Positions 9,499 to 59,957 of a DNA stretch of 64,000 bases are shown here, one piece after another. The notes beneath the pieces are model-generated. The model saw only the letters and a list, made by a program, of their open reading frames with translations, did no database searches and was not told the origin of the DNA. A program made the position numbers and the translations under genes. The stretch lies in IMG/VR virus record IMGVR_UViG_3300032516_000005. One strand, given 5' to 3'. Position 1 is the stretch's first letter, and each line of letters begins with the position of its first letter. The DNA is from a virus.

Positions 9499-9544
9499 AG
9501 TTCGAGCCTATCACAACAGGCTCTGACTTCGATCGCGTCCGCGA

Positions 9545-9805
9545 TCAGCGCTTCTGTTTCCGGCGGCGACGACGTGCCGCGAGGCCCGACTTGCAGGCTG
9601 GCCGCTTCCGTAGCCAGTCGGCTACTGCCGTGGCCGTGCCGTACGCATCGGCTTTGTCAGACGTGAAGCTGCCGCCGTCCTTGCCGCCCTGGACCTTGCC
9701 GTTGACGATCGCTTTGACGACGTACTCGTCGTACTCATGGTTGCGGTAGATGCGCACGGCACACTTCGTACCGATAGGTGTCTCGTGGATTTTCTTGAGC
9801 GCCAT
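9545..9805 (-). CDS. small protein with GLA+Arg tail
   Basis: ends SGLAARRRRRKQKR. Confidence 0.65.
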   Translation of the reverse strand: MALKKIHETPIGTKCAVRIYRNHEYDEYVVKAIVNGKVQGGKDGGSFTSDKADAYGTATAVADWLRKRPACKSGLAARRRRRKQKR

Positions 9806-9808
9806 GGT

Positions 9809-10141
9809 TCAGCCTTTCTTGATGCGATCGCGTACACACGCGACGCGGAAGTGTTTGGCGGCTTCGTCCAGCTCGCGGGCTTCAAGCGAGTCACGGAAGG
9901 CCCCCTGAGCGAGATACGGCATCGACGCGTCGTAGTGAACCGCAGCTTGGCCCTCGAAGTACGTCGCACGACGAAGTTCGGTGTCAGCCCGCGCGCAGTT
10001 CCCCGTGGTAAGCGCGGCGGCTATCCCCTTGGTGGCTGAACGGACTGCATTGCGTGCGACGACCAGTGAACGTGCATGCGTATCCTCGGCACTGCCAAAA
10101 TGGGCGTGACGCCCTCGACGGATGCGGCGGGTACGGGCCAT
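9809..10141 (-). CDS. small protein, paralog of the C-terminal domain of 63288..63782
   Basis: basic N-terminus then FGS..TH..GNC..YDAS..CVRD. Confidence 0.7.
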   Translation of the reverse strand: MARTRRIRRGRHAHFGSAEDTHARSLVVARNAVRSATKGIAAALTTGNCARADTELRRATYFEGQAAVHYDASMPYLAQGAFRDSLEARELDEAAKHFRVACVRDRIKKG

Positions 10142-10157
10142 GTCGCCAGACTATCAC

Positions 10158-10173
10158 GATCGCGCACGCGATC
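10158..10173. promoter_or_regulatory. GATCGCG-NN-CGCGATC palindrome, bidirectional promoter element
   Basis: flanked by TAGTAT-7nt-ATG (+, 10190) and TAGTCT-6nt-ATG (-, 10141). Confidence 0.75.
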
Positions 10174-10189
10174 AGGTAGTATCAGGGCC

Positions 10190-10462
10190 ATGACACAACC
10201 CAGAATGTCGAAGAAGAAGCGCGAGTACCTGGACTACTTGCGCACGCAGATCATCCCCGACACCAGGGCCACGGGTCGAATGGCCACCGCACAGGATCTG
10301 CAGAAGTGCGCGCGGCTGATCAAGGCCGGCAAGACCGACGCGAAGTTCGTGCGGTTTCTTCGCGAGACACTGATCCCCGACTTCCGCGCGAGCGGCAGCG
10401 ACGGCTACGTCGACGACTTTCAGCAGTGCGCGCGGTACATCACGCCCAAGCGTCGACGCTAA
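10190..10462 (+). CDS. small two-repeat protein
   Basis: YLRTQIIPD.RA.G..QKCAR repeated as FLRETLIPD.RA.G..QQCAR; basic ends. Confidence 0.65.
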   Translation: MTQPRMSKKKREYLDYLRTQIIPDTRATGRMATAQDLQKCARLIKAGKTDAKFVRFLRETLIPDFRASGSDGYVDDFQQCARYITPKRRR

Positions 10463-10493
10463 GAAATGACCGCGTCTTCGTCAGGAACACTAG

Positions 10494-10973
10494 ATGATCA
10501 TCGCATTCTACGAAGAGCCGTCGCCGCTCGACTACCCTGATCGTGGACCTGTTCAACGCTTCGGACTGTTCTCGCCCGAGCTGCCGTCGTTCGATCCGAA
10601 GGACACCTACTTTGCCGTCACCGAGCGCGTGCACCGCTACGGCAAGACCGGCAAGCTGCTCAAGAAGCCGCGCATCGAGGTCTTGCCTGGCGCGCGGCCA
10701 GGCACGCTCGCGTGGCTCGACTGGCACATGATCGGGCCACGGGTCCTCTACATCGACTTCATGACCGTGCGCAGCGACTGGCGCGGCATGGGCGCAGGTC
10801 GTCGGCTCGTCGAGGAGTTCTACCGGCTCGTCGAGGAGTTCTACCAGTACGTCGTCGTGCCGCGCGCCGATACGATCGACTGGGGCAAGATCGTGAGCGA
10901 CCGCGCGGAGCATCTCTATCGGTACATGACGAAGCGCTACTCCGGCATCCGGCACTACGGAAAGATCCGATGA
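10494..10973 (+). CDS. GNAT acetyltransferase
   Basis: YIDFMTVRSDWRGMGAGRRLV acetyl-CoA motif A. Confidence 0.75.
   Translation: MIIAFYEEPSPLDYPDRGPVQRFGLFSPELPSFDPKDTYFAVTERVHRYGKTGKLLKKPRIEVLPGARPGTLAWLDWHMIGPRVLYIDFMTVRSDWRGMGAGRRLVEEFYRLVEEFYQYVVVPRADTIDWGKIVSDRAEHLYRYMTKRYSGIRHYGKIR
10803..10844 (+). repeat. 21-bp perfect tandem duplication (in frame)
   Basis: CGGCTCGTCGAGGAGTTCTAC x2 = RLVEEFY x2. Confidence 0.9.
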
Positions 10974-12263: not shown

Positions 12264-12276
12264 GCGATTCGAACGT

Positions 12277-12684
12277 CTAACGTCGCCGACGGCGACCGAG
12301 GCCACCGCGCGTCGCTGCGCGCTTGGCTGCACCCTGCGCCTGCGCCGCCGTCCCGTAGCCCTGGAACTTGCCTACGGTCTCGACGCCGCAGCGCTCTGGA
12401 TCGTAGTGCCGCACGGAGTAACCGCGCCGACCGTCAGGACCCTTCTCGCTGGTCGTGAAGTACGCGCCGCCACGACCGTCGTGGTACGCGGTCTCACCGA
12501 CGCGCGAGCTGAAGAACCGCATCGTCTCGGGCTCGAAGAAGTGGCTGTGGCAGATCCTCGCGCACTCTTTCACGTCGTCGATGAACGTGCGTGTGCCAGC
12601 CGTACTCGCGGCCGTCCCAGCGCCGCCTGTAATCTTGCAGCTCTTACCTTTGCCGGTAACTTCAGTGCCTCGAAAGCGTGCCAT
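12277..12684 (-). CDS. conserved phage protein with GGLG+Arg tail
   Basis: HFF..ETMRFFSSR, YFTTSE; ends RGGLGRRRRR. Confidence 0.75.
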   Translation of the reverse strand: MARFRGTEVTGKGKSCKITGGAGTAASTAGTRTFIDDVKECARICHSHFFEPETMRFFSSRVGETAYHDGRGGAYFTTSEKGPDGRRGYSVRHYDPERCGVETVGKFQGYGTAAQAQGAAKRAATRGGLGRRRRR

Positions 12685-12700
12685 GCCCGTAGCCTACCAC

Positions 12701-12716
12701 GATCGCGCGCGCGATC
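12701..12716 (-). promoter_or_regulatory. palindromic promoter element
   Basis: GATCGCGCGCGCGATC-GTGG-TAGGCT-6nt-ATG(12684). Confidence 0.75.
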
Positions 12717-15356: not shown

Positions 15357-15372
15357 GATCGCGTGCGCGATC
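15357..15372 (+). promoter_or_regulatory. palindromic promoter element
   Basis: GATCGCGTGCGCGATC-9nt-TACCGT-6nt-GTG(15394). Confidence 0.7.
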
Positions 15373-15393
15373 AACTTCTGGTACCGTTGACGC

Positions 15394-17151
15394 GTGTCAA
15401 CCATCCTCAAGAACATCCTCGCGTTTTCGAGCCTGGCTGTAGGTGTTCCTGTCGTTTTGCCGCATCGCCTCAACGTCAATGGGATCCCAGCGCTGCCCAA
15501 GACGGTAGAGCCTGATGTTGGCGGGTTCGTGATCACGGCCGACGCGACCAACATCACCGTCACACGAACCGTGACCGGCCCAGCGGCTGTCAACGTCCTC
15601 GTCGAGTTCTGGCACACGATCGAGTCCGTTGTTCCGCTCGTGCCTCCACCGGGCAAGCTCATCGGCCAGGTGCCATGGATCCAACAGCCCGGCGCTGGTG
15701 GCGGCAGCTCCGGTGGGGGAGACCCGAATTGCCTGATCTACCGCCCGGGTTCCGGCCTGCTCGGGCCGGTCGTGTTCGATACGTGGGCTGGTCTGATCGC
15801 GGCCCTCGCAACGCTCCGAGCTTCAGCCAACGGATCGGGCTGCTACACGATCGCGTTCGACGACTCGATCGTCTCCCCGTGCGTGATCCCGCCGGGCGCG
15901 TACGACATGACCCAGGTCACCTGGGAGCCAGCGCTGATCACCACGACGGGTACCAACGTCGCCGTGAGCATCCCCGAGGGCGTGACGTTCACGAAGCTGC
16001 GCCTGTTCAATTTTTCGCTGGCGATCACGTTCACTGGCGTGACTCCTCCAGTCTCTGATTTCGGGGCGTTCGATGTCGTCGGGATGTTCGGCGGTGTCAA
16101 GATCGGATGTTCCGGTACCGGGCCGTTCTTCTCCAACACCGTGGTCGGTGGACCGCCCGTGATCTTCGGGATCGATCGCGGCTCGGTGATCGCCGACCTC
16201 GGGTTTGGCCAGGCCGTCATTGACGCCCCCGTGGTCGGCGCGTTCGTCTTCATCGTCGCGCAGTCAGCCTTTTCTGAGCTGCAAGCGAACACGGTATCGG
16301 GCGTCGTGGGATCAACTCTCCTGATCGGGACCGCTGCCTCGGGGATCCAGCTCGCGTCCGAGACGCACCCGGCATTCCTCGGCACGCTGGTGCAGCAAAA
16401 CACCACGCGGGCTCGCCTGACCCCGACGCCTGCGCCGCCGTCAAAGCCGGTGATTGCTGACATGACGATCACCGACGCGAACGCGATGGTGCTCGTCGAT
16501 CCGTCTGGCCTGTTCCCGGTCCCCGGCCAGCTCGTGCTGACGCTTCCACTTGCGGCAAGCGCGAGCGTCAACCGTGGACAGCACGTCATCATCAAGAACG
16601 TGTCGCCGCTCCCCGGCGTCATCACGATCATCCCGCAAGGCGCGGACACGATCGACGGAATCGCGCTGGTCGCGTTCAACGAGCCGATGGGCGCGATCTG
16701 CTTCGTCTCCGACGGCGTTGACACCTGGCGGCAAGCTCCGACGAGCTTGTACGCGCCACCCGAGCAGTGGGCGCAGGAGAACGTCGCGCCGAGCCAGACC
16801 GGCGTTGCGCTGAGCTGCCAGGTCTCGACGAACTTTGATGACCTTCGCATGATCCGTCCTGGATCGATCGTCGGCCTCGGCGTGCGCTTCACCGAGGCGA
16901 TTACCGCAGGCACCGCGACGATCCGCGCCACCATCAACGGCGGCAACGCGGCGATCGAGGTGGTCTGCACGTCGCTGTCGAATGCCGACGGCGGGCAGAT
17001 GACCACGCAGAGCGGCGTCGACGTCTACGCTGGCGGGAGCGTCATCGGCGTCGAGATCGACACCGATGCCGGGATCACGTTCGCGAATCGATCGAACGTC
17101 GAGGTCTGGCTCGAAGTGACCGAATTCGGCGACCCACTCCTTCGTCGGTGA
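15394..17151 (+). CDS. large beta-rich structural protein (fibre/spike-like)
   Basis: V/T/G/P-rich, Gly linker, LTLP.A....GQ.VIIKN..ITI.PQG.DTIDG fibre-type module; last codons altered by the adjacent inversion. Confidence 0.65.
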   Translation: MSTILKNILAFSSLAVGVPVVLPHRLNVNGIPALPKTVEPDVGGFVITADATNITVTRTVTGPAAVNVLVEFWHTIESVVPLVPPPGKLIGQVPWIQQPGAGGGSSGGGDPNCLIYRPGSGLLGPVVFDTWAGLIAALATLRASANGSGCYTIAFDDSIVSPCVIPPGAYDMTQVTWEPALITTTGTNVAVSIPEGVTFTKLRLFNFSLAITFTGVTPPVSDFGAFDVVGMFGGVKIGCSGTGPFFSNTVVGGPPVIFGIDRGSVIADLGFGQAVIDAPVVGAFVFIVAQSAFSELQANTVSGVVGSTLLIGTAASGIQLASETHPAFLGTLVQQNTTRARLTPTPAPPSKPVIADMTITDANAMVLVDPSGLFPVPGQLVLTLPLAASASVNRGQHVIIKNVSPLPGVITIIPQGADTIDGIALVAFNEPMGAICFVSDGVDTWRQAPTSLYAPPEQWAQENVAPSQTGVALSCQVSTNFDDLRMIRPGSIVGLGVRFTEAITAGTATIRATINGGNAAIEVVCTSLSNADGGQMTTQSGVDVYAGGSVIGVEIDTDAGITFANRSNVEVWLEVTEFGDPLLRR

Positions 17152-17567: not shown

Positions 17568-19292
17568 TCACTCGACCCGAAACCTGTCGATCTCGCTGCC
17601 GTCAGCGACGATTGCGATAACCGCACCACCCGTTGACGTCGGACCCAGTACGTAGGCTTCCAGCTCGTCACGTTCATCTTCACCAAGCGCGATCGCCAGC
17701 AGCATCCGATCGCTGTCGTCGGCGTCAGGTTCGGCAGCGTTGTTCACGAAGCCCCAACCGTTGCGGCCGAGCTGCTGCACGCGCATGCGGCCATCCGAGT
17801 CGCCCAGACCTTGCGCCTTCGCGGCCTTTGCAGCGGCTTTGGCCTCGCGTGCAGCGGCTTTGGCTTCTTTCACGGCCGCACGTTCGGCTTTCGCGGCGGC
17901 TTTCTCTGCCTTGGCCTCGGCGGCAATTCGCGCCTGTTCTCGACCCTCCTCGGTCCAGACCGTCACGCGCGTGATCACCGTTTGCTTCACGCCCTTGTAG
18001 TCGTCGTGCTTCTTGATCGTCCCCGTGATCTGGTACTCCTCGCCGATCTTCACCTCCGGGTTCGACGACGCAAACCACGTCAGCAGCGCACCATCAGGCG
18101 TCACGAACTTGTGCAGGTACGACATCCCGAACTGCGTCTCGATCGGCTTGACCATCAGCGGCTTGACGATGAGGTCCAGACGTTCGCCGACTTCACCGAT
18201 CCAGTGCGACTCGCCCGCGCTCTCACGCTCGACCTTGCGCTGAACGCTGCGCAGGTAGTATGGGATCACCGATGCGGTGATGCCGGCCAAGCGCCGCCCG
18301 ATCACGGGCTGCGTGAGCGCGACGTAGAGGTTGTGCTCGTAGTCGTCGCGGTCAGGGTTGTCCGACAGCGTCTCACGGGCGTACTCCAGCGCAGCCTCTG
18401 CCATCTGCTTGTCGTCGTCGTTGGGTGCGAATTTCGCAACCAGCGCTTCCCACTGCCGTCGCGCTTGCGGACCCACGCTGCCTGGTGGTTCGAGCACTTC
18501 GAGCGTGATGTCAGCGGTCGCCTGATCACCTGAATCGCGTGCCTTGCCGCGTGAGATCCAACCGTGGACGCGGACGACCGCGGCGACCTGCGTCAGGAAC
18601 GCCGACATCGGGAAGCGCTGTTCGCCGTGCCCGCCACCGCCGAAGCCCTCTTCGTCGCTCAGCTCGCCTGCCGTACGTAACGCCGCGAGCAGCGATTCGA
18701 GGTACTGCGCAACGGCGTGTGGATCTTTGCCGCCCAGGAAGTCCTGGGTGCAGTTCCGACCGACCTGCATGTACTGGCCGGTCTCGTCGTTGCGAAGGAT
18801 GTACGTGTCCTTGCGCGACCGGATCGTTCGACAACAGTGATCGCAGTTCGAGGCGTCTGCGTGACGGTACTGTTCAGGCAGGCGCTCGACGAAGCCGGGC
18901 ACGACGCGCAGCAGGTTGACGGTCTTGCCAGTGTCGTCGGTGAGGTGCTGCAACGTTGCCACGAACGACCAACCTGCGATGCGCGGCGTCGTGCCCGTGA
19001 CGCTGACGGGGAAGAACTTGAAGTAGACGATGCGTGGCGGGTGCCGCGGTGGCGGCGTGCCAGGCAACGGCGGCTTGTACGGCGCGTAGCGCGTCTCGGT
19101 CGAATACGGATCGTCGGACTCGTACTGCACGTACGGACGATCTTCGGGCGTGCCGACAGCGTAGGCGATCGCGCCGACACCCAGGCGCTGGGCCTTCTTG
19201 ACGAGCTTGTCGAGCTTGACGTGCAGCTCACGCAGGTTCCCCTCGGGAACCCAGTACGTCACAGGCGTTGGGGCGTCATCACCGAACCACAT
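17568..19292 (-). CDS. conserved phage protein with Cys cluster and C-terminal OB-fold-like domain
   Basis: CDHC..R.RK..YIL..QVGRNC..DFLG; IGEVGER...GTIKKHDDYKGVKQT; AKA-rich linker then GLG. Confidence 0.75.
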   Translation of the reverse strand: MWFGDDAPTPVTYWVPEGNLRELHVKLDKLVKKAQRLGVGAIAYAVGTPEDRPYVQYESDDPYSTETRYAPYKPPLPGTPPPRHPPRIVYFKFFPVSVTGTTPRIAGWSFVATLQHLTDDTGKTVNLLRVVPGFVERLPEQYRHADASNCDHCCRTIRSRKDTYILRNDETGQYMQVGRNCTQDFLGGKDPHAVAQYLESLLAALRTAGELSDEEGFGGGGHGEQRFPMSAFLTQVAAVVRVHGWISRGKARDSGDQATADITLEVLEPPGSVGPQARRQWEALVAKFAPNDDDKQMAEAALEYARETLSDNPDRDDYEHNLYVALTQPVIGRRLAGITASVIPYYLRSVQRKVERESAGESHWIGEVGERLDLIVKPLMVKPIETQFGMSYLHKFVTPDGALLTWFASSNPEVKIGEEYQITGTIKKHDDYKGVKQTVITRVTVWTEEGREQARIAAEAKAEKAAAKAERAAVKEAKAAAREAKAAAKAAKAQGLGDSDGRMRVQQLGRNGWGFVNNAAEPDADDSDRMLLAIALGEDERDELEAYVLGPTSTGGAVIAIVADGSEIDRFRVE

Positions 19293-19307
19293 GATGGCAT
19301 CCTACCT

Positions 19308-19323
19308 GATCGCGCACGCGATC
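19308..19323 (-). promoter_or_regulatory. palindromic promoter element
   Basis: palindrome-AGG-TAGGAT-6nt-ATG(19292). Confidence 0.75.
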
Positions 19324-20659: not shown

Positions 20660-20890
20660 TCACGCAATGAAATCCCAGGTGCACATCGATCGGGGATGCG
20701 TCGCGCGTTTCGCGATCGCTTTCTCCGCACCTGTGCGGAGATGAACTTCAAGCTCTAGCGTTTCGCTGGCGCTGTCAACGATGCGCAGCACGCGCGCCGT
20801 GACCGCACCCTGCGGCGCGCCGTCCACGTAGAAGATCACCGTCGAGCCGATCCCGAATCGCGGCGGCCAACCGAACGGCCGCTTCGTCAT
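20660..20890 (-). CDS. hypothetical protein
   Basis: ATGA overlap with the recombinase. Confidence 0.5.
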   Translation of the reverse strand: MTKRPFGWPPRFGIGSTVIFYVDGAPQGAVTARVLRIVDSASETLELEVHLRTGAEKAIAKRATHPRSMCTWDFIA

Positions 20891-21849
20891 CGTTCAGCCT
20901 TCGGCCCTTTGGCCTTCGGCATCAGCGACGGCAGCGCGTCGCCGACGGCGCCGCGTGTTCTGACGTGCGTGTAGATGTTCTCGATCGTCCGTTCGGTCTG
21001 GCCGGTGAGTTTAGAAACCTCGGCCGCGCTTTTGCCCTCTTCACGCAGCCACGTGACGGTGCTGTGCCGTGCGAGGTGCGGGAACACGTGACGGATCTTC
21101 GCGCGCTTCGCGCGACTACGAAACACGCTCCACAACTGATACGGCGTCAACTGTTCACCGACCTGCGTCGTGCCGTCGGTCGCGGCCCACACGTCGCGGA
21201 ACACGGGCCCGGTCTTGAAGCCTGCAACCGCAAGCAGTTGTAGCCACTCGTTGAGCGCGCCGAACGTCTCGACGTCCGCTTCGAACGTGATCAGCTCACC
21301 GCCCTTGTTGACCGTCGTGATCTTCGGTGGCCGGATGGCTTCGATCATCAACGCATGCAGACCGCCACGACGTAGCCCCGAGCGCAGCGCGAGCACGAGG
21401 AGCGCACGATCACGAATGTTCGCAGGTTTAGCGCCGCTGCATGTGTCGAGCAGCTTGCCGGCTTCTTCGTAGGTCAACGGCTCGCGGGTCACACCTGCCT
21501 TAGCTTTGATCTTGGGTACGTCCTGTGCGAAGTCGATTGCACCAGCGGTGCGATTGCGCCTCGCGTACTGCAAACTCGCGCACCGGATCGCCTTGCGGTA
21601 CACACGAACTGTCTGCGGCGAGCACTTCCCGCGATCACGTGCGGCGACTGTACGACCGTGCGAGAGCAGTCGACCGAGCCAATCCTCGACGGTGCCGTAG
21701 GTCCACCCGGTCAGGTTCGCGCCCGCAAACGCGATGAAATCTGCGACGCACTCACGGTAGAGATCCCGCGTGCGATCACTCAGATCGAGGTTACGTGCGA
21801 TCGCTTCGTCGAGCAGATTTGCTGGCTGTGTAGCAATCGGCGATTTCAC
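20887..21849 (-). CDS. tyrosine recombinase (XerC/D-like)
   Basis: RDRALL..SGLR, KGG, HLARH, C-terminal IYTH; AAGGAG RBS before GTG 21849. Confidence 0.85.
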   Translation of the reverse strand: MKSPIATQPANLLDEAIARNLDLSDRTRDLYRECVADFIAFAGANLTGWTYGTVEDWLGRLLSHGRTVAARDRGKCSPQTVRVYRKAIRCASLQYARRNRTAGAIDFAQDVPKIKAKAGVTREPLTYEEAGKLLDTCSGAKPANIRDRALLVLALRSGLRRGGLHALMIEAIRPPKITTVNKGGELITFEADVETFGALNEWLQLLAVAGFKTGPVFRDVWAATDGTTQVGEQLTPYQLWSVFRSRAKRAKIRHVFPHLARHSTVTWLREEGKSAAEVSKLTGQTERTIENIYTHVRTRGAVGDALPSLMPKAKGPKAER

Positions 21850-23526: not shown

Positions 23527-23979
23527 ATGACTTCGATGCCGCTCAAGGTCACCCACGATCCAAATCGTCGATCGCTGCTCGTCACAGGACTGCTTCACCG
23601 CGCGTGGATGCTGTTCGAGTACGGTCCCGAGAACAGCCCGGACCTGCGTTGCACGGAGCTGGCCGCGAACATCGAGTACCACTCGATCGTCACGGGCGCG
23701 TCGAACCCGTCATGGTCGAACGTCAACGAAGCGTGGGACGCCGCGCGTGCGGCGCTCGCACAGCTCTGCGTCGATCCGAGTTGCGTACCGACGGCAACGC
23801 ATGCACCGAAGAAACGCATCAACGGCGCCGTTGCGCTGGTGCTCGCGACCGAAGATCGCGTCGCGCAGTGGGGCGGTTTCACGGGCGAGCGCGAGTATTT
23901 ACCGGTGTTGATCAACCGGCTCAACACTGACGACCGCAAGGCCTACGACCGCCGCAAGCGCGGTTTGGTGGTGCTGTGA
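23527..23979 (+). CDS. hypothetical protein
   Basis: in operon, good codon bias. Confidence 0.6.
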   Translation: MTSMPLKVTHDPNRRSLLVTGLLHRAWMLFEYGPENSPDLRCTELAANIEYHSIVTGASNPSWSNVNEAWDAARAALAQLCVDPSCVPTATHAPKKRINGAVALVLATEDRVAQWGGFTGEREYLPVLINRLNTDDRKAYDRRKRGLVVL

Positions 23980-24422
23980 AAGACAACTTCGTACGCAAAC
24001 GCATCGTCAGCGGTACCGAGGTCGTTGAATCCATCTGCCGCATCGGACGCGACGGTAGGTCGGCGTCGAAGGCTGACAAGGCACGCTGCCACGAGTTCTG
24101 GAACAGCAACCTCAAGGATCGGCGCTTCACGTTGACGGCTGTCGCCGTCGCGAAGCTCAAGACAAGTCATGAAAGCAAGCGCTGCGACATCGGCGATGTC
24201 GGGCGCTACGTTGACATGCGTCGCGATGGATCACCGTTCCCGCCCGTGCTCCTACTGAACTGGGTACCGCGCTGGAAGGCGTGGCGCGTTTGGGACGGCA
24301 ACCACCGTGTACGTGCAGCCCAGTGCGTCGGTGACCAGCGCATCGCGGCGTTCGTGCCGGTCAAGGAACGCACGATCAAGGTGTTGTCACGGCGTTCACG
24401 ATCGCGCACGCGATCAAGGTAG
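23976..24422 (+). CDS. ParB/Srx-like domain protein
   Basis: FPPVLL..VWDGNHRVRAA. Confidence 0.75.
   Translation: MKDNFVRKRIVSGTEVVESICRIGRDGRSASKADKARCHEFWNSNLKDRRFTLTAVAVAKLKTSHESKRCDIGDVGRYVDMRRDGSPFPPVLLLNWVPRWKAWRVWDGNHRVRAAQCVGDQRIAAFVPVKERTIKVLSRRSRSRTRSR
24400..24415 (+). promoter_or_regulatory. palindromic promoter element
   Basis: palindrome-AAGG-TAGACT-6nt-ATG(24432). Confidence 0.75.
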
Positions 24423-24431
24423 ACTCGGTCG

Positions 24432-24665
24432 ATGAAGCGGAAACGAAAGGCACTCGGCGGCTCACGGACGACGCTCACGATCTGGACGGAGATCAAAGAA
24501 AGTCGCGGTGTGTCTACGCCACGCGCTTTGCGCGGTCTTTCAAGACTCGCCAACGCATGTGATCTGCGCAAACGGATCAACCGAGAACAAGGCCGTGAAA
24601 CAGTTGTTCGCGGACCTAGCCAAGAACATCCAGTAACGCCTGTGATCGACGTTTGGGAGGGCTAG
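24432..24665 (+). CDS. small basic protein, N-terminal KRKRKALGG
   Basis: leaderless-type start. Confidence 0.6.
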   Translation: MKRKRKALGGSRTTLTIWTEIKESRGVSTPRALRGLSRLANACDLRKRINREQGRETVVRGPSQEHPVTPVIDVWEG

Positions 24666-26156: not shown

Positions 26157-26593
26157 TGCGCCCCGCCAAGTTCGCAGGCGCGGCGCCGTCGGCCAAATGC
26201 CCTGCACTGACGTTCCACACCGGGGCGTTTCAGGGCCGCATCAAGGTCACGGCAGTTGTTACTGACGGTCAGCGTCAGATCGGGACACTGACCGCGGCAC
26301 CGCAGCGCAAGCGTTTGGTGATCAACCACGTCTTCGTGAACCCGGAACATCAACGTTGTGGCATTGCGACACGCATGTATGAAATCGCTGGGCAGTATGC
26401 GTGCGCCAACGGTATGAAGCTCGCGAGCGATGTCACGCGATCGGACGAAGCCGATCTGTTCTGGCAGAAGCAAGTTACGAAAGGCCGTGCGCGGCGTGGG
26501 GTCAAAGCCGAGAGCGGCGACTCATATTACGTGCTGAGCTGCCCCGTCGAGACGCTGTCACGGCGTTCACGATTGCCCGCGAGATCACGGTAA
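26156..26593 (+). CDS. GNAT acetyltransferase
   Basis: VFVNPEHQRCGIATRMYE; SDEADLFW. Confidence 0.8.
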   Translation: MRPAKFAGAAPSAKCPALTFHTGAFQGRIKVTAVVTDGQRQIGTLTAAPQRKRLVINHVFVNPEHQRCGIATRMYEIAGQYACANGMKLASDVTRSDEADLFWQKQVTKGRARRGVKAESGDSYYVLSCPVETLSRRSRLPARSR

Positions 26594-26623: not shown

Positions 26624-26639
26624 GATCGCGCGCGCGATC
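26624..26639 (+). promoter_or_regulatory. palindromic promoter element
   Basis: palindrome-GCGA-TAGACT-6nt-ATG(26656). Confidence 0.75.
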
Positions 26640-48454: not shown

Positions 48455-48490
48455 CAACGTTGTACGCGGTTGCACTATTCAAAGCAAGAG
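48455..48490 (-). promoter_or_regulatory. ECF-type promoter with upstream box
   Basis: CTCTTGCTTTGAAT-N17-CGTTG; also TTGCTT-N17-TACAAC. Confidence 0.55.
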
Positions 48491-51158: not shown

Positions 51159-51200
51159 AGACGGGACCCCCGGTCCGACATTCAACAAAGCGAGAGTAAA
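51159..51200 (-). promoter_or_regulatory. ECF-type promoter with upstream box
   Basis: TTTACTCTCGCTTTGTTGAAT-N16-CGTCT. Confidence 0.6.
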
Positions 51201-51330
51201 TTGCTAACTAGGCATGAAAACAGGGGTTTTTAGGGTGAAATTCGGGGTCGTGGGAGGCAGATCCCGGCTGGGATCGACCCACTCCCGGGGTGTTTCTGGG
51301 CCGGGCTCCCTCGAACGTATCCTTTGATCC

Positions 51331-51360
51331 GGTCGATCCCATCCGGGATCGACCTTTTTT
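51331..51360 (+). terminator. intrinsic terminator-like hairpin
   Basis: GGTCGATCCC-atcc-GGGATCGACC-TTTTTT. Confidence 0.6.
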
Positions 51361-51396
51361 ACTCTCGCTTTGAATGGCGCGCCGCGCGCGCCGTCT
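51358..51396 (+). promoter_or_regulatory. ECF-type promoter with upstream box
   Basis: TTTACTCTCGCTTTGAAT-N16-CGTCT. Confidence 0.6.
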
Positions 51397-53012: not shown

Positions 53013-53166
53013 CCATGAAGGGCCGCATGAACTGGCAGCTCGACTGCGCGTACAACGAAGCTCAGAAGCGGACGTTCCACGCGACGGTGCAGTCGCGCCT
53101 TCGCATCCTCGCGATCATCGAATTGCGCCTGGAGCCGAACACGTTCGATGTCCCATGCCTATCCGG

Positions 53167-53195
53167 TTGACACCCATCGCATCCGTGGCTAGTGT
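53167..53195 (+). promoter_or_regulatory. sigma70-type promoter starting in the left TIR
   Basis: TTGACA-N17-TAGTGT. Confidence 0.6.
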
Positions 53196-53202
53196 ATAGA
53201 GC

Positions 53203-53508
53203 ATGGAGACCTCTCAAATGTCGAATCAAGCACTTACGGACTCCGAAAAGATGGCATCGCATCGCGAGCGTGCCGCGCGTGCCAAGCATGTGGTCTTCAA
53301 GAAGATCTGCCGCGGGCTCTACATCAGCCACAAGTACGGTATGGGCCTCAGCCACGAGAGCGTCTGGAGCAAGTACGACGGACGCAAATGGGTCCTCTCG
53401 TGGAGCGAGACGTCCGGTCTCGGACTGTTGACGCCGAACAAGCGCACCAAGAAGTTCGATACCGCCGCCGAGGCGCGGGCTTACGCGAACGCGTTGGTGG
53501 GGGGCTAG
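53203..53508 (+). CDS. IS passenger gene 1, hypothetical
   Basis: first ORF inside the element; alternative start 53218 with GGAG. Confidence 0.6.
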   Translation: METSQMSNQALTDSEKMASHRERAARAKHVVFKKICRGLYISHKYGMGLSHESVWSKYDGRKWVLSWSETSGLGLLTPNKRTKKFDTAAEARAYANALVGG

Positions 53509-53511
53509 CCC

Positions 53512-53865
53512 GTGCCCGTGCGATGGAAACGTTCGGTCGATGGCTTCGTGGAGTCCCACGACGGTCGCTGGCGGATCACGCCGAACTACTCTAGTTGCGT
53601 CACCGCGCAGTCCTTCCGGCTCGTGCGCGACGGAAAGACCGTGAGCTACAACGCGTCGACTCAGCGCGACGCCAAGGCAGAGGCCGATCGACTCGTCAGG
53701 CCCTGCTACTGCAACGGAAGGGGGTGCGACCGTCGCCATCCCGGGCAGTTGCAGTGCACGAAGTGCCGCGGAACGGCATGGGTGTCTGGCGAGGATCGCA
53801 AGGGCGCACCGATCCACTTGTGCGCCGTCTGCAAGGTCCCAATGCCTCCACCCGAGGCGGATTAA
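53512..53865 (+). CDS. IS passenger gene 2, Cys-rich hypothetical
   Basis: ES.DGRW.I; CYCNGRGC, CTKCRG, CAVC. Confidence 0.6.
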   Translation: MPVRWKRSVDGFVESHDGRWRITPNYSSCVTAQSFRLVRDGKTVSYNASTQRDAKAEADRLVRPCYCNGRGCDRRHPGQLQCTKCRGTAWVSGEDRKGAPIHLCAVCKVPMPPPEAD

Positions 53866-54249
53866 ATGACGAAGCGCTTCTATCGATTCGTCAACGATCA
53901 CGGTGGCCTGTTTCGGATGACCGAGACCAACTACCGTCGCTACCTGCTTGCCGGCACTCGGACTGACAAATCCGCCGATCCTGAGGAGTACGGCGTCTGC
54001 ATCGGGGACGTGCTCACGGTCACCAAGTTCACGACGACCGAGTTTTCCGACGAGTACAACCACGAGGCTCGGCGGGTCGACAAGGCGCTCGCGATCGTCT
54101 GCCCCAAATGTGGGGCTGATGCCGGGAAAGCGTGCCTCTCGCTCGACAAGCGCTGGCAAGCTGAGAAGTGCCGGACGCTCGGCATCCTCGACAACGGCTG
54201 GCGCAAGACTCCGCACCGAGAGCGCGTACAGATCGCGAAGGGTCGGTAG
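53866..54249 (+). CDS. IS passenger gene 3, Zn-finger protein
   Basis: CPKCGADAGKAC..PHRER. Confidence 0.6.
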   Translation: MTKRFYRFVNDHGGLFRMTETNYRRYLLAGTRTDKSADPEEYGVCIGDVLTVTKFTTTEFSDEYNHEARRVDKALAIVCPKCGADAGKACLSLDKRWQAEKCRTLGILDNGWRKTPHRERVQIAKGR

Positions 54250-54252
54250 CCT

Positions 54253-55287
54253 ATGTGCATGGCCGACAAGTTTCCCGAGTCGCTCCCCGGCTTTATGAAG
54301 ATGTTCCCAGACGACGCAGCGTGCGCGAAGTACCTCGAAGCGATCCGCTGGCGCGACGGCTTCCAGTGCCCGAAGTGCGGCGTCACCGCCGAGCCGTTCC
54401 GGTTCTCCGCGCGCCCCGGCGTGCTGCGCTGCAAGGGCTGCAAGAAGGACACGGCTCTCACCGCCGGCACGATCATGGAGCGGACCCACACGCCGCTCTC
54501 GACGTGGTTCTGGGCGGCCTTCCTGATCTCCAGCCAGACGCCCGGCATGTCCGCTGTGCAGTTGCAGCGCCAGCTCGGCCTGTCGCGCTATGAGACGGCT
54601 TTCCAGATCCTCCACAAGCTCCGTGCCGGTATGGCGACCACGAGCGGGCCGATCGGCGCTCGGGCACACGTCGAGGTCGACGAGACCTACGTCGGCGGTC
54701 GCACGCGCGGCAAGGGACGCGGCGTCACTGATCAGATCCGTGTGATCGGCGCGGTCGAGGTAAAGCAGCGCAAGATCGAGAAGATCGACACCGAAGACGA
54801 CTACCGGCACACCAAGGCGAAGCCCCGGCGCGGCGGTCGCTACGCGGGCCGGCTGCGCCTTGCGGTCATCCCCGACAAGACCGCGAAGACGTGCGGCGGG
54901 TTCATCGCCGCGAACGTCGACACCCTCACGGAGATGGTCGTCACCGACGGCTCGCAGAGCTACGCGGGGTTGGCACGGCACGGCTACCAGCACCTCGCGT
55001 GTCCCGAGCGCGGCGAGCCGGGCGTCACCGAGGACTACCTGCCCGTGATCCATCTCGTGTTCAGCAACCTCAAGACGTGGATCAACGGCACGCATCACGG
55101 CGTGTCGCCCGATCACCTCCAGGCGTACCTGAACGAGTTCGTGTTCCGCTTCAACCGGCGCTTCTACCCGTTCAACTCGTTTCGGAGTTTGCTCGGGCTG
55201 AGCGTCACGAAGGAGGCTCCCACATATGACGAGCTGTACGATGGCGATTGGACTCATCCGAGCACTACCGGTGGGAGCGTTGGGTGA
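54253..55287 (+). CDS. IS1595-family (ISXO2-like) DDE transposase
   Basis: RW.DGF.CPKC Zn ribbon, VEVDETY, TDG, GTHHGVS..HLQAYLNEF.FRFNRR. Confidence 0.95.
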   Translation: MCMADKFPESLPGFMKMFPDDAACAKYLEAIRWRDGFQCPKCGVTAEPFRFSARPGVLRCKGCKKDTALTAGTIMERTHTPLSTWFWAAFLISSQTPGMSAVQLQRQLGLSRYETAFQILHKLRAGMATTSGPIGARAHVEVDETYVGGRTRGKGRGVTDQIRVIGAVEVKQRKIEKIDTEDDYRHTKAKPRRGGRYAGRLRLAVIPDKTAKTCGGFIAANVDTLTEMVVTDGSQSYAGLARHGYQHLACPERGEPGVTEDYLPVIHLVFSNLKTWINGTHHGVSPDHLQAYLNEFVFRFNRRFYPFNSFRSLLGLSVTKEAPTYDELYDGDWTHPSTTGGSVG

Positions 55288-55545
55288 CAACCGGACAGGC
55301 ATGGATGTCCGCTCCAACAAGGGCGGAATTGCAGTGTCCGGCGAAATCACGCTGCACCACGATGAGGTCTACGTGCAGGTCTCGCAGCCGTTCAGCGGCG
55401 CCGACACGGGCATCCTGATCCGTACGTGCAAGGGTCGGCGCGACTACACGGGCGGCGTCAACAACTTCGCGGCGCTCACACTCCTCGACGACGTTCCGAC
55501 GCTCGCCGCGCGTGTACGTGCCGTGATGGGTGCAGAAGGTCGCCG

Positions 55546-55851
55546 ATGAAGATCCCAATCTCGCGTGCTGCGCTCGCGGCGATGACGCTCGACGAGTACC
55601 GCACGCACTATCCCGAGGTCGCGTCCGGGGAAGTCCTCGAAGCGATGTACGACGACCGCCTCGTCGCGTTCGACGAGCAGGTTGCGATCTCTGTGCAACT
55701 GGTCGATGAACTCGCCGACGAGGAAGTCATCGCCGACATGGACGAACAGTGCCCGCTGTGCGGTGGCCCGCAGCAAATCCTCGGCAAGCTCGGGCAGCGC
55801 GTGCACCTGCGTTGCCGTAACTGCGGCGCCGATACCAACAGCGCGAGCTAG
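55546..55851 (+). CDS. hypothetical protein with Zn ribbon
   Basis: CPLCGG..LG.LG..H.RCRNCG. Confidence 0.65.
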   Translation: MKIPISRAALAAMTLDEYRTHYPEVASGEVLEAMYDDRLVAFDEQVAISVQLVDELADEEVIADMDEQCPLCGGPQQILGKLGQRVHLRCRNCGADTNSAS

Positions 55852-56447
55852 CGCTTGCGACGGCGGTAGATCACGATGCCGGTGCCTGCAGCGGCCAGCA
55901 GCACGACGACGCCCGTGATCGCGTACGCGATGGTCCGCTTGCGCGTCACTACAGGCGCCACCTCGCCGAACTGCTGACGCTTCTGCGGTGTCATGACGAT
56001 GACACCGACGCGATCGCGGAACTTCCAGCGCTTGTCCAGCTCGTGACGCGTCAACGTCCGACGGTTACCCTTGACGTTCGGGTCCATGATCTCGACGAGG
56101 CTGGGCTTGACGTCGGTGGCGATGACGAAGTGCCCCTGGCCAGGCCGGGTGAAGCTCTGGATCGCGAGGATCACGGGCACGTCGCGCGACGTGTACTGCT
56201 CCAGCTCGTCGATCGAGTCGAATTGGCGCGTCTGCGCCCAGTACCCTCGCGCGCGGGCCGCTGCTTCGACCTGATAGCAAGTCGAGCCCGTCTTGGGGTC
56301 GACGCCAACCTCGCGGATCAGATCCCGTTCGTCGGCAGGTTCGTCCCAGTGACCCATCACGGCCTTGAGGGCAGCGGCGCCGCACGAGTACGGCTGGATT
56401 TGCTGGTACGGCTCGACGTCGCCGAGGTGGATCGCTGCTGCGAGCAT
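55848..56447 (-). CDS. C39-family cysteine peptidase with C-terminal TM anchor
   Basis: Q...YSCGAAAL, GHFVI, IMDP; TM helix then RRRKR. Confidence 0.8.
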   Translation of the reverse strand: MLAAAIHLGDVEPYQQIQPYSCGAAALKAVMGHWDEPADERDLIREVGVDPKTGSTCYQVEAAARARGYWAQTRQFDSIDELEQYTSRDVPVILAIQSFTRPGQGHFVIATDVKPSLVEIMDPNVKGNRRTLTRHELDKRWKFRDRVGVIVMTPQKRQQFGEVAPVVTRKRTIAYAITGVVVLLAAAGTGIVIYRRRKR

Positions 56448-57080: not shown

Positions 57081-57755
57081 CTGTTAGCCTGACCGTGCCA
57101 CGTCTTCAGCGTCACTGATCGCCGCACGAACCTCGCGGCCGAGCGCTGCCTGCTCACCGGGCGACAACCGCTTCCACGGCCAGGGTGCTCATGCATGGCT
57201 CGATGGTAACGCAAAACGCGTAGTAACGCGAGCGGCGATCGCTTGATCGCGTACGCGATCGACCCCTGTGGTTCTACCTCCACGCTGAAATCATCGGTCT
57301 CTAAGCGGGCAGTCTCGGCGGTACAGGTGCTTGATCGTACATACGATCATAGGTACCGTAGTTGCTTCCTCGTCTACCTTTACGGACCGGCTAGGGGGCA
57401 ACATGACACTGAAAGTCCAGCGCGAATCTGCGACTCCGAACCTGCTCAAGTACAGCGTCACCCTGACGGTGGTGAGTTTACCCTGAGCCGCGAAGACCTG
57501 ATCCGCGACAGCACGCGTGGACCGCTTCGCACGTACGTCGAGCGAGCTGTTCAACTGAAGGATGCGGATGCAGCCTGTCGCTACCTGTTGTGCAGCGCCT
57601 CGATGCGAACGCTGGTGACGCCGCGTTCGTTCGCGCGTGTCGCTGTCGACGCGAGCGCTGAAGGTGCTGCATCGAGCATCGCGTTCAAGATCATGGCCGA
57701 ACCCAACGCAACGGCTATCGTCGCACTCGAATTCCGCCACTCGGTCTCGGCGTAA

Positions 57756-58307
57756 CTAACGCCGTTGATAATGCCGGCCAACGCTGGCAGATGACGCGCG
57801 ACAGCGTTTGGTCAAGCGACCGATGCCGAAGCCGATGCCGGTGAGCACCACGAAGGCACCTGCGCCGACCAGTACAGGATGATCGAGTACGAACTGCGCT
57901 GCGGGATGCTTGTCGAGGAAGATCGCGGTATCGAGAACAGGCACCAGTTTGCTGATGCCTGAGTCTGTCGACGGCGGCGGCTTGGGTGCACCGGGTACGG
58001 GTGGTGGCGCCTTGGCCGCTGCAAGCGCCTTCAACGTCTTGAGGCGGTTGACGACTTGCGGCAACGCTGGATCCTTGGCGATCCCCATGACCGTGTCCAA
58101 GTGCGGGCCAGCCTGGTTGAGGATCCCGACAGCCTTGGTGAGCAACTCCGGACCCTTCGCGAGGATCGTTTGAATGTCTTCAGCGACACCGCCGAAGCCG
58201 GCAGGTGCGTAGAACGGCAACCTGCTCAGCCGGTCTTGCAGATCAGTTTCGGCTTCAGTCGACCAGACACGAGGCAGGGGTGCAGGTTGATGAGAGGCGA
58301 ACAACAC
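57756..58307 (-). CDS. membrane protein with C-terminal TM and basic tail
   Basis: AGFGG near the N-terminus; TM near the C-terminus. Confidence 0.65.
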   Translation of the reverse strand: MLFASHQPAPLPRVWSTEAETDLQDRLSRLPFYAPAGFGGVAEDIQTILAKGPELLTKAVGILNQAGPHLDTVMGIAKDPALPQVVNRLKTLKALAAAKAPPPVPGAPKPPPSTDSGISKLVPVLDTAIFLDKHPAAQFVLDHPVLVGAGAFVVLTGIGFGIGRLTKRCRASSASVGRHYQRR

Positions 58308-58324
58308 GTGGTTAGCCTATCACC

Positions 58325-58340
58325 GATCGTGTGCGCGATC
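58325..58340 (-). promoter_or_regulatory. palindromic promoter element
   Basis: palindrome-GGTGA-TAGGCT-6nt-GTG(58307). Confidence 0.7.
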
Positions 58341-58380
58341 ACCGCTTTCGGTCCATGCAGCACGTAGTAGGGTCGCGGCC

Positions 58381-58959
58381 ATGACGCTCGAAGCCCTGAT
58401 CGCCGCCATCATCGCGATGTCATTCAACCTGTCGCCAGAACAGGCACGCATTCACGTCGAGGCCGCTACAGCTGCAGCCGCTGAATACGCGCTTCCCGTC
58501 GAGCTTTTGCTTGGTGTCGCCTACGTCGAGTCACGCTTCGATGAGCGTGCCTTGAGTCGCGTGGAGTGCGCGTCCAAGGATCCGACTAGCTGCGCACGCA
58601 AGACAGGCGTCTGGCCATACGCTACGAAACCGCCGAAGGCGCGTCCCAGTTGGTATTGCGGGCCGTTGCAAAGCGGAGGCTACGTGCCGTGGGCTGAATG
58701 CCAGAAGATGCGCACCGACGTCGCATACGGCTACCGTGCGGGTGCACAAGAGCTGGTGACGTGGATGAACGACAAGCACTGCCAAAGTCTTGGCGTCGAT
58801 GACCGACTGCGCTGTGCGCTCGCAGGGCACAGCGCTGGCAACGCAGGCGTTGCAGCGTACCGGACAGTCAAGTACGCCGACTGGGCGCTCCTTGGGCGTG
58901 ACCGCGTCGTCAAGTTCGCGAACTACGCTGCACGTAAGGCTCAGCAGCCTGGCAGCTAG
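58381..58959 (+). CDS. lytic transglycosylase-like protein
   Basis: LL.VAYVESRF...GPLQ; hydrophobic N-terminus. Confidence 0.65.
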   Translation: MTLEALIAAIIAMSFNLSPEQARIHVEAATAAAAEYALPVELLLGVAYVESRFDERALSRVECASKDPTSCARKTGVWPYATKPPKARPSWYCGPLQSGGYVPWAECQKMRTDVAYGYRAGAQELVTWMNDKHCQSLGVDDRLRCALAGHSAGNAGVAAYRTVKYADWALLGRDRVVKFANYAARKAQQPGS

Positions 58960-59363
58960 TTCTTGGCGATGGCGCAAGACGGATTGTAGGTCGAGGCTTG
59001 ACCCGGTCCGACGATCGAGTGCGGGTCCCAGAACAGCACGTTGATCGTGACGGGCGTGTGCCCGGTGACAACGAACACGACCTTGACAGTCCCGTCCGCT
59101 GGGTCGACGAACGGCTCACCGTGCGTGACGACCGACCACGCTGCGAGCGGCGCCTGCGGGATGACCTGCACGCGCGAAGCAGGAAGGGATCCGTCGGGCG
59201 GTCCCGGCGGCGCGATCGTGATGCCGAGGGGCGGCTCGTTCGGAGACATGCCCGCGAAGCTCTTGTTGACCTGGGTGAGTCCCGTGTCGATCGTCGTGTT
59301 GACGCAGTTGGTCAACGTGATGCGTCGCCGATTCCAAAGAAGTGCGCCTGCCTTCGTACCCAT
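58956..59363 (-). CDS. putative virion protein, paralog of 33252..33620
   Basis: shared motifs; GGAGG RBS; palindrome at 59427-59442 upstream. Confidence 0.75.
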   Translation of the reverse strand: MGTKAGALLWNRRRITLTNCVNTTIDTGLTQVNKSFAGMSPNEPPLGITIAPPGPPDGSLPASRVQVIPQAPLAAWSVVTHGEPFVDPADGTVKVVFVVTGHTPVTINVLFWDPHSIVGPGQASTYNPSCAIAKN

Positions 59364-59459
59364 GATGTCCTCCTAGACCGTGACCGGAGTCGCGAAAATG
59401 CGACGAGGTGACATCAAACTACACCCGATCGCGCACACGATCAACGGGTCGTAGTGGCG

Positions 59460-59906
59460 TTACCAGTCCGAGTCCATCGGGTCGGTTGCGCGCTTTGGAT
59501 CACCTGAACGGCGATACAACCAAACACCGCCGGCTGCGAGTACGATGCCCGTTGCGAGTGCGCCGCCGAGGATCATCAAGCCCGCCACGAGTGGCGTCTG
59601 CTTGGCAAAGAAGTCGGGCGCGTCACCGGGCGCGTCACCGAACTGTTGACGTTGGTACGGGATCACTTGCTGCCCGCCATCGGCGACGGTGTAGTAGTTC
59701 GGGTCGCAGTAGTTACAGATGGGCCCCCGCGCGGGATAGCGCCGTCGGTACATGATGGGCGTGCCGCCGGGACCGAACACCGTGGTGGCCACGCGGGTCG
59801 GACCGATGATCGACTGACTTGGCGCGAGCGGCGAGCCGGCTGGCGGGTACGAGAACGTCGGCATCGCGCTGAGGTCCGGACCTTCGAGTGTGAAGACATG
59901 GGGCAT
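59460..59906 (-). CDS. membrane protein with C-terminal TM
   Basis: QQFGD then TM then YRR; palindrome at 59941-59956 upstream. Confidence 0.65.
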   Translation of the reverse strand: MPHVFTLEGPDLSAMPTFSYPPAGSPLAPSQSIIGPTRVATTVFGPGGTPIMYRRRYPARGPICNYCDPNYYTVADGGQQVIPYQRQQFGDAPGDAPDFFAKQTPLVAGLMILGGALATGIVLAAGGVWLYRRSGDPKRATDPMDSDW

Positions 59907-59957
59907 TGGGGTCGGCTCCTCGGGTGCTCTAACGTACCATGATCGCGGACGCGATCG

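Follow-up and report, generated by a model that had tools for sequence, protein, structure and literature searches.

Multi-operator phage repressors are known from the CIR sites of phiC31 and the C1 operators of P1. At the late promoters of P1, the repeat recognized by Lpa is centred near -22, in place of the -35 box. Operators sensitive to Dam methylation are known at mom of phage Mu and at agn43 (both with OxyR) and at pap (with Lrp); in these cases the methylase is the host Dam and one or few loci are concerned. P1 possesses 11 late promoters, each with a 9-bp inverted repeat bound by Lpa (PMC10695390). The stoperators of mycobacteriophage L5 and Cluster A are asymmetric 13-bp sites that are bound by a monomer and depend on orientation (PMC9283540). 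Cluster O mycobacteriophages contain more than 30 copies per genome of a 17-bp palindrome, TGTTCGG-N3-CCGAACA, mostly in short gaps; most copies lie away from promoters and a role in transcription was thought unlikely by the authors (PMC4351075). The present work concerns another palindrome, GATCGCG-NN-CGCGATC (GATCGCGNNCGCGATC), that recurs in a 64,000-nucleotide stretch of viral DNA (IMG/VR record IMGVR_UViG_3300032516_000005), referred to below as the window.

At promoters, the palindrome is restricted to one class of genes, coding for virion-type, membrane and lytic proteins. The new observation is that four relatives carry the same core at the same orthologous promoters, often at the same spacing. 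With moderate confidence, and judging from sequence patterns, we read the palindrome as the operator of one dimeric, most likely virus-encoded repressor acting on host-type promoters. Protein binding, repression and its lifting are what we infer from these patterns.

The palindrome and its promoters in the window

The exact palindrome occurs 12 times in the window (starts at 9531, 10158, 12701, 15357, 19308, 24400, 26624, 29919, 33196, 41805, 57245 and 59941), against 0.00 copies expected from 100 shuffles. Six further copies differ by one mismatch (31725, 36095, 58325, 59427, 40437 and 55917), and 25 are observed with up to two mismatches where 2.35 are expected. The main set consists of the 12 exact and six one-mismatch sites, i.e. 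18 sites with 36 sides. Fifteen of the 18 fall in gaps or at gene edges, though 89% of the window is coding according to gene calls based on codon bias; the G+C content is 62-64%. All copies named in the original prediction, which had been made from the letters of the window, were recovered at their positions, those at 31725, 36095, 58325 and 59427 with one mismatch each. The list was nevertheless incomplete, having missed the intragenic copies at 40437 and 55917 and a copy at 942 that retains only the core GATCGC-N4-GCGATC. The enrichment over shuffled sequence is borne out by the counts, and the tie to -10 boxes and gene starts lies far above background.

Once the sites are aligned by orientation, a recurring unit appears: palindrome, 3-5 nt, TAGnnT, 5-7 nt, ATG or GTG. 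A TAnnnT box at 3-5 nt is present on 14 of the 36 sides and at 11 of the 18 sites, against 0.7% of random positions (P ~3e-21); the complete geometry of TAnnnT, 5-7 nt and ATG/GTG is found on 10 sides against a background of 0.1%. Because the -10 box is placed so that the transcript would begin at the start codon, these genes are read as leaderless. Leaderless genes are common in Streptomyces, in which 264 mRNAs have leaders shorter than 10 nt compared with five in E. coli (PMC4681348). Counted from a +1 at the start codon, the palindrome spans about -32 to -17 and its centre lies at about -24.5. No TTGACA is present upstream of the tight window sites, and no conserved -35-like hexamer lies beside or overlaps the palindrome. 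The box at 3-5 nt, its distance of 9 nt at 15357 and the lack of TTGACA had been noticed from the letters alone and hold up. Many boxes, with or without a palindrome, are preceded by TGn and thus form an extended -10. Extended -10 promoters need no -35 contacts.

The guarded genes code for small basic and membrane proteins, a DUF7447 protein, a GHKL ATPase, a RecT-like protein, two weak SLT-type transglycosylases (35444-36079 and 58381-58959) and two paralogues of a small conserved beta-sandwich protein. This agrees with the early description of the downstream genes as structural-looking, membrane and lytic genes. The long minus-strand replication-type array of the window (SNF2 helicase, intein-bearing AAA ATPase, DUF2201/VWA protein) has no promoter palindromes.

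Tight units head the genes starting at 10141, 10190, 12684, 19292, 24432, 26656, 31708, 31757, 36079 and 58307. Two 48-bp gaps hold bidirectional units that, as predicted, serve divergent genes and are leaderless on both sides. In the first (10141-10192), the palindrome at 10158-10173 is flanked on the left by TAGTCT (10148-10153) and ATG 10141 of gene 9809-10141 (-), and on the right by TAGTAT (10177-10182) and ATG 10190 of gene 10190-10462 (+). In the second (31708-31759), the one-mismatch palindrome at 31725-31740 stands between TAGCCT (31716-31721) with GTG 31708 and TAGGAT (31745-31750) with GTG 31757. The sites 29919 and 58325 also serve divergent genes, one side being loose. In the gap 29901-29989, the palindrome at 29919-29934 is followed to the left after 6 nt by TAGATG (29907-29912) and ATG 29901 of a membrane protein gene, and to the right after 39 nt by TAGACT (29974-29979) and ATG 29987. 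In the gap 58307-58383, the one-mismatch palindrome at 58325-58340 has a tight left side (5 nt, TAGGCT 58314-58319, GTG 58307, membrane protein) and a loose right side (27 nt, TAGGGT 58368-58373, ATG 58381, weak SLT match).

The other tight units serve one gene each. Three are on the minus strand: 12684-12716 (palindrome 12701-12716, 4 nt gtgg, TAGGCT 12691-12696, 6 nt, ATG 12684) before the DUF7447 protein gene, 19292-19323 (palindrome 19308-19323, 3 nt, TAGGAT 19299-19304, 6 nt, ATG 19292) before the gene of the RecT-like protein of 574 residues, and 36079-36110 (one-mismatch palindrome 36095-36110, 3 nt, TAGAAT 36086-36091, 6 nt, ATG 36079) before a gene with a weak SLT transglycosylase match. 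Two are on the plus strand: 24400-24434 (palindrome 24400-24415, 4 nt, TAGACT 24420-24425, 6 nt, ATG 24432), which heads the gene of a basic protein of 77 residues and overlaps the final 22 nt of gene 23976-24422, and 26624-26658 (palindrome 26624-26639, 4 nt, TAGACT 26644-26649, 6 nt, ATG 26656), which heads the gene of the 619-residue GHKL-type ATPase and whose flanks lengthen the dyad to about 36 bp. The degenerate copy noted early at 26571-26586 is present with three mismatches and a spoiled -10 box (TAACTA); it is a decayed duplicate of the 24400 region, since the upstream flanks of the two match.

Besides the 6, 27 and 39 nt found in the divergent gaps (29901, 58381 and 29987), looser palindrome-to-box spacings of 20 and 9 nt occur before single genes. 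The minus-strand unit 9498-9546 comprises the palindrome 9531-9546, 20 nt, TAGGCT (9505-9510), 6 nt and ATG 9498 of gene 9235-9498, which codes for a small basic protein. The plus-strand unit 15357-15396 comprises the palindrome 15357-15372, 9 nt, TACCGT (15382-15387), 6 nt and GTG 15394 and heads the gene of a 585-residue protein with an N-terminal hydrophobic stretch. Three sites (33196, 59427 and 59941) keep the tight palindrome-to-box spacing, but their genes have a leader with a Shine-Dalgarno (SD) sequence. On the plus strand, unit 33196-33254 consists of the palindrome 33196-33211, 5 nt, TATGAT (33217-33222), a leader with AAGGAG and ATG 33252, for a 122-residue paralogue of the conserved small beta-sandwich protein. 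On the minus strand, unit 59363-59442 consists of the one-mismatch palindrome 59427-59442, 5 nt, TAGTTT (59416-59421), a leader of about 50 nt with a conserved hairpin and an SD, and ATG 59363 of the conserved 135-residue beta-sandwich protein; unit 59906-59956 consists of the palindrome 59941-59956, 4 nt (atgg), TACGTT (59931-59936), a short leader with GAGGAG and ATG 59906 of a membrane protein.

The remaining copies, given without strand, have no adjacent -10 box or lie within genes. The core-only palindrome GATCGCAGCAGCGATC (942-957) is located in the gap before gene 694-921 (-), with an SD and a start codon 20 nt further on and no adjacent -10 box. Within genes lie the one-mismatch copy 40437-40452 (gene 40179-40556 (-) of a replication-type operon, no nearby -10 box), the exact copy 41805-41820 (gene 41694-42005 (-), no -10 box on either side) and the one-mismatch copy 55917-55932 (C39 peptidase gene 55848-56447 (-)). 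The exact palindrome 57245-57260 is intergenic, is preceded by a half-site GATCGC at 57237-57242 (57237-57260 in all) and has no adjacent -10 box. The 522-bp gap 57081-57602 also holds a variant perfect palindrome, GATCGTA-CA-TACGATC (57333-57348), in which both arms are changed symmetrically and which is followed after 1 nt by TAGGTA.

Conservation of the site in related genomes

Phage and plasmid collections contained no DNA nearly identical to the window. Relatives were found through the conserved 135-residue protein, which is also seen on a 167-kb contig. These are the IMG/VR records G005-G009, which share virion-side and replication modules with the window at 45-80% protein identity. G005 is probably a piece of the same virus as G006, the identity values being identical, and four distinct relatives were therefore counted (G006, G007, G008 and G009). 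With up to one mismatch, the palindrome occurs 11 times in G005, 30 in G006, 21 in G007, 44 in G008 and 13 in G009, and the reversed control gives 0. The conserved core is GATCGC-N4-GCGATC. It is found exactly at 14 sites in the window, 36 in G006, 20 in G007, 44 in G008 and 11 in G009, a total of 125 or about two per 10 kb, dispersed over the whole genomes rather than clustered.

Across these 125 sites from five genome sequences, both arms retain every letter and no compensating changes are seen, which is the pattern of a protein site rather than of an RNA stem. Conservation is confined to 16 bp, the flanks being variable. Among one-mismatch sites outside genes, A2, T3 and C4 are least variable (5/36) and G5 and C6 most variable. 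Offsets of 3-5 nt between palindrome and -10 box predominate in the relatives too. A leaderless-type promoter within 45 nt is present on 69 of 250 sides compared with 0.87% of random sides. The spacing mode is 4 nt: eight cases lie at 3 nt, 16 at 4 nt and eight at 5 nt, a tail of 13 extends over 6-14 nt and others are farther away. The modal layout, i.e. a -10 box with no -35 and the inverted repeat in its stead, is found at 50 of the 125 sites.

The spacing is often preserved at orthologous promoters. It is 4 nt in all five sequences before the gene of the 59460 type (unit 59906-59956), 5 nt in all five before the small beta-sandwich gene, and 5 nt before the 58307-type gene in four (window, G006, G008 and G009), where the distance on the right side (58381) varies. 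In G008, the orthologue of 10190-10462 keeps its upstream palindrome and that of the DUF7447 gene (12684) has one at a spacing of 4. The SLT gene (36079) has a spacing of 3 in the window and 1 in G009, and its G006 orthologue has no palindrome. The divergent promoters of the C39 peptidase gene do not differ in their -10 boxes between the window, G008 and G009; a palindrome accompanies them only in G008, where it is loosely placed. None of the replication genes that were checked has an upstream palindrome in the window or in any of G006-G009.

The leader of the small beta-sandwich gene (59364-59415) contains a short hairpin (GTCGC...GCGAC) whose stem varies compensatingly across the window and G006-G009 (TCCCGC/GCGGGA, ATCGC/GCGAT); it may be a conserved element of the 5' untranslated region. 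The fold of the 135-residue protein gave generic beta-sandwich matches only (Z up to 5), and its identification as a capsid protein was not established.

Three other genomes bearing this hallmark protein, G010, G011 and G012, contain 0, 0 and 1 sites, so the regulon is confined to a subclade. A set of loci retrieved with the RecT-like gene was set aside as relatives lacking the palindrome: they share only that gene and are uninformative on loss of the regulon. Only L118 among them (68% identity) has a palindrome, with two mismatches, at the same place. Scanning IMG/VR with the bare palindrome returned only scattered single matches among the matches listed. A palindrome with paired GATC words in G012 is not a different operator; it belongs to the repeats of a CRISPR-like array. 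This array (L326:13562-14993; IMGVR_UViG_3300036768_000843, 93.5-95 kb) lies at the contig end and has about 20 repeats of 36 nt containing CCCGATC-N7-GATCGGG, with spacers of about 24-40 nt. In a host search of 185,579 species genomes the hallmark protein was not found. The composite motif never occurred more than once per stretch in the same number of bacterial species genomes, giving chance-level single matches, which favours a virus-encoded factor.

Direction of control and candidate regulators

The original prediction proposed that the palindrome serves a dimeric activator or marks a phage-specific late promoter. The site of a symmetric, dimeric regulator that fills the spacer or -35 position in the commonest layout is retained; the activator or special promoter is not. 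In the window, TAGnnT leaderless promoters without a palindrome occur at 22520, 23536, 28895, 56447 and 56499. As with the orthologous promoters described above, these indicate that the palindrome is not needed to make a promoter. The spacing to the -10 box, beside its mode of 4, ranges from 1 to 14 nt and differs (1 against 3) at one orthologous promoter. Two orthologous genes show a different layout in G006, G007 and G008, with a complete promoter ahead of the palindrome, an SD and ATG: TTGACA (TTGAAC in one), N17/18, TAGCTT or TAGTTT, 10-11 nt and the palindrome, which thus occupies about +5 to +20. Complete promoters upstream of the palindrome are found on nine of 250 sides against 0.125% of random sides, and the genes of this downstream type encode C-terminally membrane-anchored proteins. 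Copies deep inside genes and devoid of a promoter box are present at 41805 in the window and number 4, 3, 7 and 2 in G006-G009. Downstream of complete promoters and within genes, a repressor can act and an activator cannot. Repression is also favoured by the extended -10 of many tight promoters, a form that works without -35 contacts.

According to the repressor reading, one dimeric regulator would control host-RNA-polymerase promoters (primary-sigma type, TAGnnT -10, many leaderless) of virion, membrane and lysis genes, and would repress them by occupying the footprint of the polymerase. In the commonest layout the repressor would cover about -32 to -17, directly against the -10 or extended -10 box; at the strongest promoters of the relatives it would sit at about +5 to +20, and the intragenic copies could serve as roadblocks. 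Early in infection, or while the virus is carried or lysogenic, these promoters would be silent; they would open once the repressor is displaced, be it through Dam methylation of both GATC words, titration by replicated DNA or an anti-repressor. That the element can persist silently is plausible since a tyrosine integrase is encoded in the window (20887-21849 (-); 80% identical in G008), with which it may be able to integrate or be carried.

Several points weigh against repression. Pfam and PHROG scans of about 70 window proteins detected no clear regulator and no helix-turn-helix repressor. The class with the palindrome downstream of the promoter is seen in the relatives, not in the window, and all transcription starts are deduced from -10 boxes. 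The tight promoters have no -35 at all whereas the window promoter at 53203 has one, and the RecT-like gene in unrelated phages is preceded by ordinary TTGACA-N17-TAnnnT leaderless promoters, -35 included. The spacings are sharply concentrated at 3-5 nt (32 of 69 leaderless cases), and at three orthologous promoters they do not differ by a single base pair among four or five genomes, as expected of a factor making a fixed contact with the polymerase. The controlled genes resemble late genes, which well-studied phages regulate positively (PMC10695390).

These last points are those that speak for an activator-dependent late promoter as in P1, in which a dimeric virus activator bound near -24 would replace the -35 contact and recruit the host polymerase, the other copies being decoys or side effects. 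The 50 sites of modal layout, the exact orthologous spacings, the virion, membrane and lysis character of the targets and the Lpa-bound repeats of P1 (PMC10695390) would all fit. We nevertheless consider it unlikely. It does not account for the palindrome at about +5 to +20 of complete promoters in three relatives, for in-window and orthologous -10 promoters that lack a palindrome, or for the spacing tail and the intragenic copies. In addition, the scans of the window proteins gave no named activator family, Lpa-like or other.

A slightly smaller chance is given to a MerR-type dual switch, whose spacer-bound dimer would repress or activate by reshaping DNA in response to a signal or to GATC methylation, and would only repress at the downstream sites. 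MerR-family dimers sit near -24, where the present palindrome is centred; MerR promoters have a recognizable -35 and a spacer of 19-20 bp, neither of which is seen here. The candidate for such a switch stems from a double box, two palindromes 30 nt apart, seen in G006-G009 and not in the window. In all four relatives it adjoins a D12-class Dam gene (Pfam E 3.5e-41), a gene for a small zinc-type protein and a conserved gene for a protein of 237-255 residues. The word of site 942 in the window is that of the first box of the double box in G008. The structural model of the 237-255-residue protein (predicted local distance difference test 81) shows HNH-like features in its middle part (Pfam HNH_3 E 0.0025; I-HmuI Z 3.5). 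Its C-terminal 50 residues weakly match winged helix domains of the MerR/Xis type, namely the Xis of Pukovnik (Z 5.1, 44 residues at a root-mean-square deviation of 2.3 A) and regulators of the MerR family (Z 4-4.8). These matches remain weak (Foldseek E above 1, Z about 5), a Pfam scan of the protein gave no MerR match, and the HNH-like part stands in place of the dimerizing coiled coil of MerR. Moreover, G010 and G012, with 0 and 1 sites, have kept Dam and this protein (69-74% identity) just as well. As an operator-specific regulator the protein thus fails co-occurrence; its HNH/winged-helix gene is a lead, a candidate regulator.

Presence/absence profiling returned 82 candidates and was not decisive. 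They include an XRE-like protein of 69 residues, a ribbon-helix-helix/AP2-like protein (its AP2 match, E 3e-4, did not reach the cut-off) and a small winged-helix-like protein that the window encodes as well. Its unannotated gene there, at about 42290-42470 (-) in a gap of the gene calls, encodes about 58 residues (MLENIRDG...WRSLVRRELVAW...) that look winged-helix-like by sequence and share 72% identity with a protein of G008 that occurs in every palindrome-bearing genome. Beside the double box, the stretch L253:3120-3901 of G008 and the syntenic stretch of G009 encode small, very basic proteins with RRRRK/RKARR tails, which may be DNA-condensing virion proteins.

That the palindrome is no transcription operator at all and instead acts as a hairpin or terminator in the RNA, a site for partition or packaging, the target of a nuclease or restriction enzyme or a mobile repeat is highly improbable: its RNA can fold (-9 to -23 kcal/mol with flanks), it often directly follows the stop codon of the upstream gene and an HNH-like protein is conserved nearby, but no U-run follows the hairpin as in intrinsic terminators, sites also lie in divergent gaps where there is nothing to terminate, the arms never co-vary, only 16 bp and not the flanks are conserved, and the sites are tied in position to -10 boxes and spread over whole genomes.

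The repressor reading leaves room for methylation in the lifting of control, which had been suggested from the GATC in each arm. The idea is kept alive by the two GATC words of each operator, by their conserved A, T and C and by the Dam gene conserved in the relatives; gating of regulator binding by GATC methylation is possible on these grounds. An over-representation of GATC in the window was discarded as a signal since it is explained by trinucleotide content: GATC is 3.2-fold over the mononucleotide expectation but 1.09-fold over the trinucleotide expectation, and TCGA behaves alike. G010 and G012 retain Dam in spite of having no regulon. A fuller version, which we regard as doubtful, would be a methylation clock run by the virus. 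The repressor would grip unmethylated GATC pairs at some 40-50 late promoters; a virus Dam made earlier would then methylate the operators, or replication would leave them hemimethylated, whereupon the repressor would be evicted everywhere at once and the virion genes would fire. The Dam and HNH-winged-helix gene pair beside the double operator would form the core of this switch.

Gene classes of the window and kinship with known systems

A second motif, CTCTYGCTTTG joined to TGAAT-N16/17-CGTC, heads replication-type operons and looks, by its sequence, like a promoter class of extracytoplasmic function (ECF) sigma factors. Seven AAAGCRAGAG cores are present in the window against 0.25 expected. 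The motif is located at 3895-3931, 4593-4637, 5896-5905, 7459-7503, 48481-48490, 51160-51203 and 51362-51395; no sigma factor gene was found in the window. In a 238-bp divergent control region between two ECF-like promoters lies a different GATC-pair palindrome, GATCCC-N4-GGGATC (51260-51275 and 51335-51350), each copy being followed by GACC. It could be a second operator type or an origin repeat. The sole full promoter of the window (53203, TTGACA-N17-TAGTGT) heads a short operon (53166-55851 (+)) comprising a Phage_zn_bind_8 zinc-finger protein (53866-54249) and an IS1595-family transposase (54253-55287), whose genes have no matches in the relatives. Three promoter classes, plain host-type, palindrome-guarded host-type and ECF-sigma-like, thus appear to sort the genes into replication and virion sets.

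The window proteins are mostly orphans, with phage-type domains such as GP88, inteins and the tyrosine integrase. Inteins apparently interrupt the AAA ATPase (45178-47199 (-)) and the GP88-like protein (60548-63022 (-)), as indicated by Hint/intein-splicing and LAGLIDADG matches; the relatives match only about half of each protein. The RecT-like gene (17568-19292 (-)) is found at 42-68% identity in many otherwise unrelated large phages and would be a laterally moving gene that was re-wired into the palindrome regulon here.

The sites provide a regulatory map for a group of large bacterial viruses that are uncultured and barely characterized. Since the operator is conserved across genomes sharing about 60% protein identity, it is usable to recognize members of the clade, and it could predict which of their unknown genes are virion or late genes. 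If the paired GATCs are indeed read through methylation, they would constitute a genome-wide, virus-encoded epigenetic timer, as compared with the single-locus cases known so far.

Among described systems, the stoperators of L5 resemble the palindrome in number and near-identity (dozens per genome) and in their scatter over short gaps, promoters and transcribed regions, and the L5 repressor likewise silences lytic genes of an actinobacterial-type phage with leaderless, -10-driven promoters (PMC9283540). Unlike stoperators, the present site is a 16-bp perfect inverted repeat that serves divergent genes. It contains two GATC words, has a modal position at a set distance from the -10 box and is a mark of the virion genes, not of the genome at large; the scans of the window proteins yielded no homologous repressor. 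The late promoters of P1 share the -10 box, the lack of a -35 and the inverted repeat in its place before many scattered transcription units. The P1 repeat is, however, of 9 bp and lies only upstream of the -10, whereas the palindrome here is also found downstream of complete promoters and within genes, at spacings of 1-14 nt, and -10 promoters exist without it. The Cluster O palindrome is similar in its invariant 7-bp inverted repeat, its high copy number and its being taken as the site of a dimeric protein (PMC4351075), in contrast with which the present site is strongly tied to -10 boxes and gene starts and conserved between diverged genomes. With the Dam-sensitive operators it shares a GATC within a predicted regulator site and a Dam-type enzyme, here encoded by the relatives; it differs in that the Dam would be that of the virus and would concern about 40 putative operators with exactly two GATCs each. 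By analogy, the palindrome system would work most like the multi-operator phage repressors, with a modal geometry like that of P1 Lpa and a copy number and symmetry like those of Cluster O, and it does not display the full set of defining features of any single known family.

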